This document shows positions 805-15,167 of a stretch of 64,000 bases of DNA, one piece after another. The stretch covers positions 3,776,001 through 3,840,000 of the forward strand of contig CBDCTK010000002.1 of assembly GCA_965222225.1 (NCBI GenBank). Reading direction: 5' to 3'. Within the stretch, counting starts at the first letter, position 1. Each line of letters starts with the position of its first letter. The notes beneath the pieces are model-generated. The model searched no databases and was not told the origin of the DNA. It was given only the letters and a program-made list of their open reading frames with translations. The position numbers and the translations under genes were made by a program. The DNA comes from Candidatus Poribacteria bacterium (GTDB lineage Bacteria > Poribacteria > WGA-4E > JAJDTR01).

Positions 805-961
805 CGGCTACTACCCGATGTGGGAGGAGATCAAACGAGTGAATAGCGAGTGATCAAAGGAATGAATAATGACTGCGATAGTCAATCCTGATAGAAATTC
901 TTTTATCTTGCCCCGATTAACCAAGCAGCCGTCAACTGACTGGACAAGGAAGGCGATTGTT

Positions 962-1132: not shown

Positions 1133-1598
1133 TCCATAAACCCAAACGTTGTAGGAACGTTCAACTGACTGAACAAGGAAGGATCAAGCGAGTGGATAAC
1201 GAGCGCGATAGAGCCCAAGGCGATAGCTGATCCCGATAGAGATCCTGCACCAGCCCTTGGTTTCTGTCGTACGATAGCAAATCCTGATAGTGAATCCCGA
1301 TACAAAATCCCGTGCGATCAAGCGACTGGATAAGGAGCGATCAACTGAGCGAATAGTGAAGGCGATAGAAACTCAGGATAGAAATTCCTCACGCGACACG
1401 TATCAGGGGATCAAAGGAATGGACAATGGCTGCGATAGAGATCCCTTAATCCGCGATTCAGACAATGCGATAGAGTCCTTATAGACGTCTTCTACCGGTC
1501 ACCGCTTCCTGTCGCGAGCAGCGCTCGCTTCTACAACTCTGTCTCGCGTCGCGAGAAATCAACTGTGTGTTGCGTCTTGCTCAAACGCATATTTTTTG

Positions 1599-5490: not shown

Positions 5491-5599
5491 GTAGGGTGGG
5501 ATCAAGGGAGATCAAGCGACTGAATAAGGAGCGATCAACTGACTGGTTAAGGAAGGCGATAGTAGATCCTGATAGAAGATCCCGTGCGATAGAGATCCC
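5491..5599 (+). repeat. GTAG REP half followed by triply nested modules
   Basis: Three GATCAA left ends are followed by three GATAG..GATCC(C/T) right ends in bracket order. Confidence 0.9.
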
Positions 5600-10207: not shown

Positions 10208-10861
10208 ATGAATAAGTATTTCTTTAATATCTATAGAGCGCTCTATACGGTGCTCATCGGCATGCGCATAACGTTTAAGCAGATGTTCCAGCACGCAGTT
10301 ACGCACCAATATCCCTATGAACATCCGTTCGAGAAAAAGCGAAATGTACGCGAGATTCCCAAGGGCTATCGGGGACAACTGTTCAATCGGATTGAGGACT
10401 GTATCGGTTGCAAGAAGTGCGAAATGATCTGTCCTGTTGACTGCATCGCCATCACGACCCAAAAACTTCCCAAAGGCGAACGGCTTTGGGATAGCATGAA
10501 TGTGCTCCATCTTACGGATCGCACGGAGGTTGTCGGTTTCGTCGAAGGCGAGGAAAAGGTTGCTCCAAACACAACGGTTACCGTTAAAACTCGCGATGGG
10601 GAGACACTGACAATCCCGAGCGACGATATAAATCGTGTCGTCGAACGGAAACCTGTCATCTTCTATCTTGACAAGTTTGACATTGATATGTCGCTCTGCA
10701 TGTACTGCGGGCTTTGTACCGAGGTTTGCCCGACGGAGTGCTTGATAATGATAGATGAGATGAGGGGCATTGCGTATTCAACGTTTGACAGAATGGACTT
10801 GATATTTCCGTTCGCCAAGCCCGATATGTACGATCAAGCGAGTGATCAAGGGAGTGAATAA
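10208..10861 (+). CDS. nuoI: NADH-quinone oxidoreductase subunit I with an internal insertion
   Basis: CIGCKKCEMICP and CMYCGLCTEVCP are the two [4Fe-4S] motifs. The last residues (DQASDQGSE*) are encoded by the repeat module. Confidence 0.93.
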   Translation: MNKYFFNIYRALYTVLIGMRITFKQMFQHAVTHQYPYEHPFEKKRNVREIPKGYRGQLFNRIEDCIGCKKCEMICPVDCIAITTQKLPKGERLWDSMNVLHLTDRTEVVGFVEGEEKVAPNTTVTVKTRDGETLTIPSDDINRVVERKPVIFYLDKFDIDMSLCMYCGLCTEVCPTECLIMIDEMRGIAYSTFDRMDLIFPFAKPDMYDQASDQGSE

Positions 10862-11058
10862 CGACCGCGATAGAACTCCCATAGAGATCCCTCAAGCGAG
10901 TGAATAACGACCGCGATAGCTAATCCCGATAGTAACTCCCTCAAGCTACTGGAAAAGGAGCGATCAACTGAACGGATAGTGAAGGAGCAACTGACCGATA
11001 GGGAAGGCGGTAGAGATCCCATAGAAAGTCTTGATAGTGAATCCTAATAGCAAATCCC
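10832..11058 (+). repeat. Cluster of nested modules overlapping the nuoI stop
   Basis: About 6 left ends and 8 right ends. Clean copy at 10844-10880. Stacked right ends (GTAGAGATCCC-ATAGAAAGTCTT-GATAGTGAATCCT-AATAGCAAATCCC) at 11010-11058. Confidence 0.9.
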
Positions 11059-14796: not shown

Positions 14797-15167
14797 GAGC
14801 CTGTTTGAAAATTCATTTCGGGTAGAACTTTTGCCCTGAAACCGATCAAATGAGCGAATAGCGAATGTGATAAATGTGATAGAAATCCCTATTTTCTTGA
14901 AAACTCCGTTTCTTTCTTGCGCAATCCCGTAGGGTGCGATCAAAGGAATGAATAATGACTGCGATAGAGATCCCCTGCGCACCAGCCTTTGTGAGCCCCA
15001 GCGGGGATCAAGCAAGTGGATAACGATCGAGCGACTGAATAAGGAGCGCGATAGAAATCCCGTGCGATTAGGAATCCTATAGGTGTATAGCAGGCGACCA
15101 CAAAAGCATGAAAAAGCCGCGCCCAAGGTGACCGAAATTGCTTTGCCACCTATTTTCAAGCAGGCTC
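14797..15167. mobile_element. MITE / internally deleted IS (IS5-like ends) in the nuoL-nuoM spacer
   Basis: TIRs GAGCCTGTTTGAAAAT (14797-14812) and ATTTTCAAGCAGGCTC (15152-15167) match at 15/16. TTA on both flanks (14794-96, 15168-70). No transposase. A further left-end-like TTAGAGCCTGTTTG is at 14605-14618. Confidence 0.75.
14844..15077 (+). repeat. Module copies inside the MITE
   Basis: One copy at ~14844-14889, one at 14938-14974 inside REP 14929-14983, and a nested pair at 15006-15077. Confidence 0.88.

Follow-up and report, generated by a model that had tools for sequence, protein, structure and literature searches.

The stretch of DNA examined here, referred to below as the window, comprises 64,000 nucleotides from the genome of a Candidatus Poribacteria bacterium (G000), which has a size of 5.70 Mb in two contigs and a G+C content of 50%. 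It contains several clusters of a short non-coding repeat, which we call the module. Each module is 36-37 nt long and consists of the sequence GATCAA, a covarying 17-nt stem-loop, the sequence GCGATAG, two or three variable nucleotides and ATCC, which is usually followed by a pyrimidine. The right-end motif of the module was found 13 times in the window, compared with an expectation of 1.2±1.1, and 12 of these 13 occurrences are on the + strand. A search against Rfam found no family at the gathering score within the 64-kb window. The features of the clusters are listed in Table 1. Columns refer to a position-weight model with 30 core columns and a tail of 6 or 7 nt; a left partial unit covers columns 0 to p-1, a right partial unit column q to the end, and a caret in a motif marks the insertion joint.

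Table 1. Module units, partial units and neighbouring elements. Coordinates are those of the window unless a contig is named.
Feature	Position	Strand	Basis and remarks
Left part (GTAGGGTGG) of a GTAG-tagged REP-like repeat	5491..5499	+	Sequence and family census; directly adjoined by the outermost module fragment
Outermost left fragment, module columns 0-9 only	5500..5509	+	Sequence, position-weight scan
Level-2 outer left half (GATCAA and full 17-nt stem-loop)	5510..5532	+	p=22 plus 1 filler, 33.0 bits
Innermost intact unit, CT..AG stem type, 7-nt tail	5533..5569	+	48.6 bits
Level-2 outer right half, T then GATAG (column 24 C to T)	5570..5583	+	From column 25 after 1 filler, 18.8 bits
Outermost right end, GT, GCGATAG and tail, columns 21 to end	5584..5599	+	Sequence, right-end motif
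Two-level nest: outer left 829-851, inner 852-888, outer right 889-901	829..901	+	p=23, q=25
Two-level nest: outer left 1316-1338, inner 1339-1375, outer right 1376-1388	1316..1388	+	Position-weight scan
Cluster with nest: outer left ~1163-1181, inner 1182-1217, outer right with 2-nt AG repeat	1163..1310	+	Parsed by eye
Cluster: intact unit 10844-10879, units joined at column 2 from 10891	10844..11058	+	Position-weight scan
Unit 14938-14973 inside a GTAG-tagged REP-like repeat (left 14929-14937, right 14974-14987)	14929..14987	+	Sequence, census, scan
Nest at second GA of outer stem: outer left 15006-15024 (19 columns), inner 15025-15060, C, outer from column 21	15006..15077	+	By eye
IS200/IS605-family tnpA, 157 aa	G000:C2:3080258-3080728	-	Outside the window

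A first-pass annotation of the window, which was made from the letters alone, had read the cluster at 5500-5599 as a bracket of three left ends followed by three right ends. The left ends (5500, 5510 and 5533) and the right ends (5569, 5583 and 5599) are indeed present, but the outermost level is not a concordant bracket. Its left part stops at p=10 and its right part begins at q=21, so that the 11 columns from 10 to 20 are missing; because of this gap, excision at the outermost level regenerates no unit. The matching right half of the GTAG-tagged repeat at 5491-5499 is absent downstream. The same annotation had placed the inner copies of 829-900, 1316-1388 and 5510-5583 at one and the same position of the outer copy, and the scan agrees with this: the left halves comprise 22-23 columns and the right halves resume at column 25. 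A fourth example, at ~10941-11046, does contain stacked halves, but it reads as three degenerate left halves and four right ends (10940-11058), and the innermost unit of this stack, at 10985-11019, is itself decayed. The inner copy that had been located in the second GA at 15006-15077 was found there by eye as a nest with columns 19 and 21. The outer right half of this nest is too decayed for the scan threshold; the class (19,21) accounts for 24 of 159 nests genome-wide when these are sorted by effective left length.

The cluster at 1163-1310 is of a different kind. Its part from 1226 to 1310 contains at least four right ends without a left partner together with a fragment of another repeat, and the runs of right ends have a period of 12-13 nt. 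Taken alone, this cluster is not explained by balanced nesting. Nesting had been offered as the explanation of the runs at 1272-1310 and 11010-11058; it accounts for them only partly, because the halves are often unbalanced. In G000 a left half without a right half occurs beside 100 units, and a right half without a left half beside 132. These unmatched halves may be the remnants of deletions between direct repeats in a stack.

The stem-loop of the module follows the pattern xx-GA-yy-G(A/G)ATA-y'y'-GA-x'x'. The positions 6-22, 7-21, 10-18 and 11-17 are paired in 94.6-96.8% of the units, and each of these four pairs occurs as three or four abundant pair types, i.e. with compensatory change. The tandem GA/AG pairs between the covarying stem pairs are nearly invariant. 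In nearest-neighbour DNA folding the covarying stem does not come out as stable; the ends pair with each other over 6 bp instead, with a z value of about 0. Covariation is hence the evidence for the stem. A pyrimidine-GA-purine context is known to make tandem sheared G·A pairs stable in DNA, and the energy model treats such pairs poorly. The complementarity between the ends of the module is limited to 6 nt (GGGATC/GATCCC).

A search of the whole genome detected 758 strict module cores. With the position-weight model, in which a score of at least 25 bits defines an intact unit, G000 contains 943 intact units, and the same scan found none in 2 Mb of shuffled control sequence. The midpoints of 892 out of 940 units are located outside of crude ORF calls and 48 inside; the module makes up a visible share of the intergenic DNA of these uncultured sponge-symbiont Poribacteria. 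Nests and chains of the module are in direct orientation.

The nesting was analyzed by scoring, for each intact unit, the best left partial unit on one side and the best right partial unit on the other side independently of each other. Partial units were accepted at 12 bits or more; the 99th percentile at random positions was 4.3 bits for left and 11 bits for right partial units. Among the 943 units, 280 have a left partial unit, 312 a right one and 180 have both, and in 140 of the two-sided units the difference q-p is 2, 3 or 4. Concordant break points (q-p from -1 to 5) were obtained for 159 units. When the right flanks were permuted, this number dropped to 41.8±5.5 and did not exceed 60 in any of 2000 permutations. 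Further evidence comes from 70 nests in which the insert cuts the outer stem. The separated arms of these stems pair in 158 of 174 testable cells (90.8%), while permuted arms pair in 71.2±2.3%, and not one of 2000 permutations reached the observed value. The first-pass annotation had recommended the recursive excision of innermost units as a check; carried out genome-wide, with the break columns tabulated, it showed that of 938 blocks 158 lie inside one or more outer units, 19 inside two or more and 2 inside three or more. The same picture is obtained in a second species, G005, which is ~87% identical to G000 in aligned blocks. An unselected 400 kb of this genome contains 74 units; ten of them are two-sided, nine of these ten are concordant, and they fall into the same site classes as in G000. 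The nested arrangement of the units is far beyond chance, and the proposal that the clusters arise by insertion of whole units into other units is well supported by these data.

The site G^CGATAG, which had been proposed as the preferred one, is in fact the commonest. When the effective break column is calculated as the left columns plus filler, 80 of the 159 nests break at column 23, which is directly after the outer stem. The other 79 nests, however, break elsewhere: at column 19 in 24 cases, at 18 in 14, at 17 in 16, at 12 in 17 and at 10 in 3, which makes 74 nests at columns 10-12 and 17-19, and at columns 21, 22 or 25 in the remaining 5. In those 74 nests (effective left length 10-19) the outer stem is cut by the insert. 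A further class, with right partial units starting from column 2, comprises ten cases in which a unit is placed after the GA of the GATCAA of another unit; this class resembles a tandem array. With respect to chains, 95 of 1063 left halves run straight into GATCAA and just 5 into GCGATCAA. The joint of a nest has a characteristic form: the inner unit ends with TCC, one letter follows, usually C or T, and the outer unit resumes one or two columns too late.

The joint was also examined by comparing filled with empty sites. For this purpose 90 nt of each flank of 1388 units were joined, and copies spanning the joint were sought in all analysed sequences. The search resulted in 91 unique events, and in 87 of them the flanks are separated by 0 to 5 letters in the empty copy. 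The partners are 82-98% alike and represent a mix of orthologues and paralogous copies of larger repeats; because many belong to the latter, the 87 pairs, which come from 59 distinct contexts, are not independent events. A G is present at the left joint of the empty copy in 71 of the 87 pairs, and no longer motif is fixed. The two letters after this G are CG (16 pairs), CA (15), GT (11), AT (10) or AG (10). A duplication of the target, which would appear as overlapping flanks, was found in none of the 87 pairs. The insertion is also not clean at the joint, since one or two target letters are usually missing. If the G is assigned to the target and the pyrimidine to the element, one letter has no counterpart in 33 pairs, two in 31, three in 10, four in 8 and five in 1, so that 83 pairs lack one to five target letters and 4 pairs lack none. 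A reading without loss exists for G^A targets, in which the element would start with TCAA after GA; there is none for G^CG, G^CA and G^GT.

Nests make up twelve of the 87 events, and in these the partner copy contains the outer unit in uninterrupted form; the two copies are on different records in 8 pairs and on the same record in 4. In a comparison of loci from two species of the genus (L006 and L007), one outer unit with conserved flanks occurs with the inner copy in one species and without it in the other. An alignment of G000 with G005 contains 115 gaps between aligned blocks, of which 62 hold units in at least one of the genomes, mostly in one only. The counterpart of window 1316-1388 in G005 is a candidate for a deeper nest with ambiguous orthology; since two matchings of the units are possible, the extra level was left out of the count.

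The module does not only insert into its own family. In G000, 59 units are located directly after GTAGGGTG[CG] of the GTAG-tagged REP-like family, and ~25 units occupy a second spot in the same repeat, after TGC^G. Other units are found at GGGG^CGA, next to the GCCCC...GGGGC hairpins with which an IS200-like element begins and ends, and several further hairpin families also contain units; many solo units lie in recurring larger contexts. This has a bearing on the idea that insertion is targeted by structure, which was part of the first-pass annotation. Because units are joined in the same way, after a G and mostly as G^CG or G^CA, to the GTAG-tagged family, to the IS200-like hairpin ends and to other repeats, the targeting looks sequence-based and neither self- nor structure-specific. 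A short sequence context, which happens to be present in the module as well, is the more apt description of the target. A rule according to which units insert just 3' of a hairpin foot was examined and rejected for lack of enrichment: 4-9 of 497 solo units are at offsets 0-2, with ~3 expected.

The GTAG-tagged repeat consists of GTAGGGTG, a 17-nt palindrome and CAGCC.... G000 has 491 GTAGG[GA]TG seeds and ~170 intact copies of this repeat, and many copies are split by the module at two fixed spots; examples in the window are at 964-985 and 14929-14987. In 25 of the copies an identical AG-type unit is present at the identical spot, and therefore the composite of repeat and unit must itself have been amplified. 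At 930-1010 of the window the relation is reversed. Here a stretch of ~45 nt with a GTAG-tagged repeat in it interrupts a unit at GCGAT^..^TGATAG; other repeats therefore also land in this spot of the module.

Three other explanations of the stacks have to be weighed. The one that deserves most attention assumes that there were few real self-insertions and that most nests are copies of a few ancestral doublets or composites, which were spread by transposition, segmental duplication or gene conversion and then diverged. Copying of this kind does occur. One doublet, with outer and inner stems unchanged, is present at five places in G008, one at four in G009 and one at four in G005, and together with the 25-copy composite they indicate that some nests were inherited and not made in place; in addition, the recurring contexts of solo units and three combinations of inner and outer unit that recur in G000 are compatible with it. 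As an account of most nests we nevertheless consider it unlikely. In G000, 154 of the 159 combinations of inner and outer unit are distinct, as are all 52 pairs with a full outer stem. The stem types of inner and outer units combine widely, and divergence from a few doublets could have led to this state only through numerous coordinated compensatory changes in the inner as well as the outer copy. The claim of repeated independent events is supported by the diversity of the combinations for many of the nests; the doublets of the relatives were copied whole. The related claim that inner and outer copies are not local duplicates of each other is borne out: an identical stem-loop is present in 0 of the 52 pairs with a complete outer stem, and the identity of the stem-loops is 10.2 of 17 positions, which compares with 10.6±0.2 for random pairs. 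The CT..AG-type units are enriched among the inner copies (45 of 159, versus 63 of 531 solo units), which is the expected result if one subfamily was recently active.

Stacks could also form without any insertion if neighbouring units gave rise to runs of left and right halves through the GAT motifs that they share, by slippage, unequal crossing-over or illegitimate recombination. One left half is truly triplicated in tandem, at G000:C2:1543616, where a single right end follows the three identical copies; this is a slippage-type duplication and looks unlike the nests. The 100 left-only and 132 right-only halves and the 12-13 nt period of the right-end runs would also fit. Recombination does not, however, account for the agreement of the break columns (159 versus 41.8±5.5), for the complementarity that split stems retain, for the inner and outer stems that are identical in none of 52 pairs or for homologous copies that differ by exactly one unit. 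This explanation was already disfavoured, and there is hardly any probability left for it. Finally, the units could be functional RNAs or protein-binding sites with arrays under selection and nesting as a by-product. The compensatory changes in the stem, the invariant tandem GA and the nearly always intergenic location speak in favor of a function, as does the observation that within 60 nt past the stop codons of crude ORF calls in G000, 104 units are in sense and 41 in inverted (antisense) orientation. On the other hand, the orientation does not follow the flanking genes, an Rfam match is absent in the window, the copies are mostly not conserved at syntenic sites, and 74 of the 159 nests leave no intact outer stem. 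We regard this explanation as very improbable.

In the reading that we prefer, self-insertion, the stacks contain information on the order of events. By geometry an inner copy is younger than the outer copy that it splits, unless the doublet was copied whole. The proposal that the stacks record the order of arrival is valid to this extent; it is weakened by the copied doublets and by signals of decay that are mixed. Outer stems pair less well (183 of 208 cells, 88%) than inner stems (326 of 336, 97%); the value for solo units is 1894 of 1988. The invariant stem columns of the outer copies, however, are not more mutated (16 of 588, 2.7%) than those of the inner copies (26 of 588, 4.4%).

Overall, the units are not oriented according to the flanking genes. 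Two + genes enclose 205 units on the + and 159 on the - strand, and for two - genes the numbers are 145 and 121. The orientation is related to the local GC skew: regions of negative skew contain 337 + and 150 - units, regions of positive skew 185 + and 268 - units. This corresponds to an odds ratio of ~3.3 against the sign of the local skew, and the relation holds within each gene arrangement. The units cannot cause the skew, because the G-rich strand of the unit sits on the C-rich strand of the region. Along the whole contig G000:C2 the skew, calculated in 250-kb bins, flips its sign many times, where one origin and one terminus would give a single change each; many inversions or an unusual layout of replication may be the reason. 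Since the skew is patchy, the direction of replication is taken here from the local skew. The skew-linked orientation and the conserved hairpin together suggest a reaction on single-stranded DNA at replication forks, similar to that of HUH Y1 enzymes.

On the basis of these data the module is probably a very small non-autonomous mobile DNA element, which lands 3' of a G in a motif that every copy carries. Where an empty copy is available for comparison, the element sits 3' of the target G, with CG or CA most often as the next letters, without duplication of the target and usually with the loss of one or two target letters at the right joint. Every copy would carry G^CGA after its own stem and sometimes another target inside the stem. 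Because each copy carries the target, new copies would land inside old ones and build bracket-ordered stacks, which the later loss of halves and the copying of whole doublets would blur. The reaction may take place on single-stranded DNA at forks and may be catalyzed by an enzyme acting in trans, for which one of the HUH/Y1 type is the obvious guess.

The distribution of the module was determined with a nest-junction search, in which a degenerate 53-nt pattern represents a left half directly followed by a second unit. The nest junction is present in at least 104 stretches of public genomes, and all among the matches listed are titled Candidatus Poribacteria. A cyanobacterial origin, which the motif had seemed to suggest, was rejected on this ground. 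Within 176 genomes of the phylum it was detected in 15, namely in G000 and all 9 other genomes of its genus (g1), in 4 of 4 genomes of a second genus (g4) and, with a single match, in 1 of 20 genomes of a third (g6). The search of the remaining 28 genera, among them family f2 with all of its 112 genomes, did not find it, and a reversed control pattern gave 0 matches everywhere. The number of strict cores per genome is 281-768 in g1 and 113-128 in g4; G010 has 2, and 16 other relatives have none. For finding the enzyme this provides a phyletic profile of two genera and, beyond these, the single match in 1 of 20 g6 genomes, with the junction not found in the other 152 genomes searched.

No transposase co-distributes with the module when IS200-like and RAYT-like genes are compared across the relatives. 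G000 has five matches to PF01797. The best of these, an IS200 equivalog with 65.8 bits, is the 157-aa protein listed in Table 1. In the orientation of its gene a module copy is located upstream, and an inverted copy follows 14 nt past the stop codon; this arrangement is found in 6 of 3943 crude genes. Of its 15 loci in the genus, 12 have module copies next to the gene. Flank alignments of G000, G001 and G005 indicate that the module was inserted into the 3' hairpin of the IS200-like element. As the cognate enzyme this tnpA was rejected: the element has its own GCCCC...GGGGC ends, into one of which the module is merely inserted, relatives of the gene occur in module-free g6 (3 of 3) and g3 (2 of 6), and it was not found in 2 of the 4 g4 genomes that have the module. 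At loci L036-L061 the hairpins at the ends of the IS200-like element are followed by GACAGGTG, and in L040 and L043 arrays of hairpin units are located upstream of the gene. A RAYT-like gene was also rejected as cognate; it scores 59.3 bits with a cut-off of 80, is present in 3 of the 9 other genomes of the genus and has no unit within 2 kb. The gene encodes 247 aa and is located at G000:C2:2563965-2564705 on the - strand and at G005:C1:3780663-3781403. The two copies are 99% identical in genomes that are otherwise ~87% identical, and most of the genus lacks the gene, as would be expected after a recent transfer.

A more far-reaching reading, which we find doubtful but worth stating, is that a hairpin-bearing strand of 36 nt is joined 3' of a G and replaces the next 1-2 nt in a reaction not yet described, and that the stacks serve as a relative clock of insertion. 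This reading does without a dedicated HUH transposase because none co-distributes with the module. We know of no transposition chemistry that gives a replacement of 1-2 nt at the joint without a duplication. If the reading is true, each copy renews the target, so that the stacks would be a relative clock that can be read in any poribacterial genome.

A literature search, which covered main texts, found no description of the module or of such repeats in Poribacteria. The closest analogy is provided by the small dispersed repeats (SDRs) of cyanobacteria. According to Elhai et al. 2008 (Genome Res 18:1484), SDRs of Nostoc punctiforme and other cyanobacteria reportedly nest within each other. They are said to be very short (21-27 nt), highly repeated and intergenic, with a hairpin that shows compensatory changes. 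According to PMC4390886, SDR5 sits between the third and fourth letters of GCGATCGC, i.e. after GCG and before AT. Like these repeats, the module is nested, has a compensated hairpin and inserts at a fixed point in a short motif; its commonest joint is also after the G in GCGAT. Unlike them it occurs in Poribacteria, measures 36-37 nt, nests in its own family at several columns and costs the target 1-2 letters, although the two were compared by description only. The module works like an SDR, in another phylum and with a greater length, and could be seen as a variant of this known kind of small dispersed repeat.

Other families of short repeats share some of the properties of the module. IS200/IS605 elements and their miniature derivatives insert 3' of a short fixed sequence, a tetra- or pentanucleotide, without duplication or loss of target letters and in a hairpin-dependent manner, and their orientation bias is tied to replication. 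The module similarly has a hairpin, no target duplication and an orientation bias with respect to GC skew (~3.3). It differs in that it has one hairpin and not one per end, that its target is only a G, that 1-2 target letters are usually lost and that its ends are unlike the GCCCC...GGGGC ends of the IS200-like gene in G000. Plant MITEs and the pneumococcal RUP form self-insertion stacks from which events can be ordered; these elements are 100-400 bp long and have target duplications and terminal inverted repeats, which measure about 15-30 bp in the MITEs of DDE transposons. Self-insertion stacks of the module can likewise order events, but in contrast to MITEs the module has 36 nt, an end complementarity of 6 nt only and no target duplication. 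REP/REPIN sequences are described (PMC3116915, PMC3733652) as short extragenic hairpin repeats with hundreds of copies that are thought to be moved as single-stranded DNA by an HUH Y1 enzyme in trans, with a conserved GTAG or CGTC tag at one end (PMC3733652). REPs are also known targets of insertion sequences. The module resembles them as a short, extragenic repeat with a covarying hairpin and hundreds of copies. It starts, however, with GATCAA and ends with ATCC and a pyrimidine, and it does not have the GTAG/CGTC tag, which here belongs to a separate family that is itself a target. A RAYT that is flanked by the module or co-distributed with it was not found among the genes compared, and the units are single and nested directly, whereas the replicating unit of REPINs is an inverted doublet.

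The spread of very short hairpin repeats of the REP-like or SDR-like type is poorly understood, and most families carry no internal record of their movement. Hundreds of insertions of the module into known sequence, either the module itself or other repeats, provide joints at single-base resolution. The site preference, the absence of duplication, the loss of 1-2 nt and the strand bias constrain the chemistry of insertion. The value of the module is mainly that of a well-resolved system for learning how very small hairpin repeats move.

Every cluster of the module breaks short-read assemblies. A scan of metagenomes with a 25-nt flank of the 5491 cluster gave no match. Logan contigs of four public runs end at the repeats, and the joint sides listed for them are just 20-32 letters long and come from other copies, so that they speak neither for nor against self-insertion. 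In run X12 one contig joins position 14588 of the window to 15167 with 153 letters instead of 578; in this strain the repeat cluster at 14929-15077 is therefore absent or replaced.
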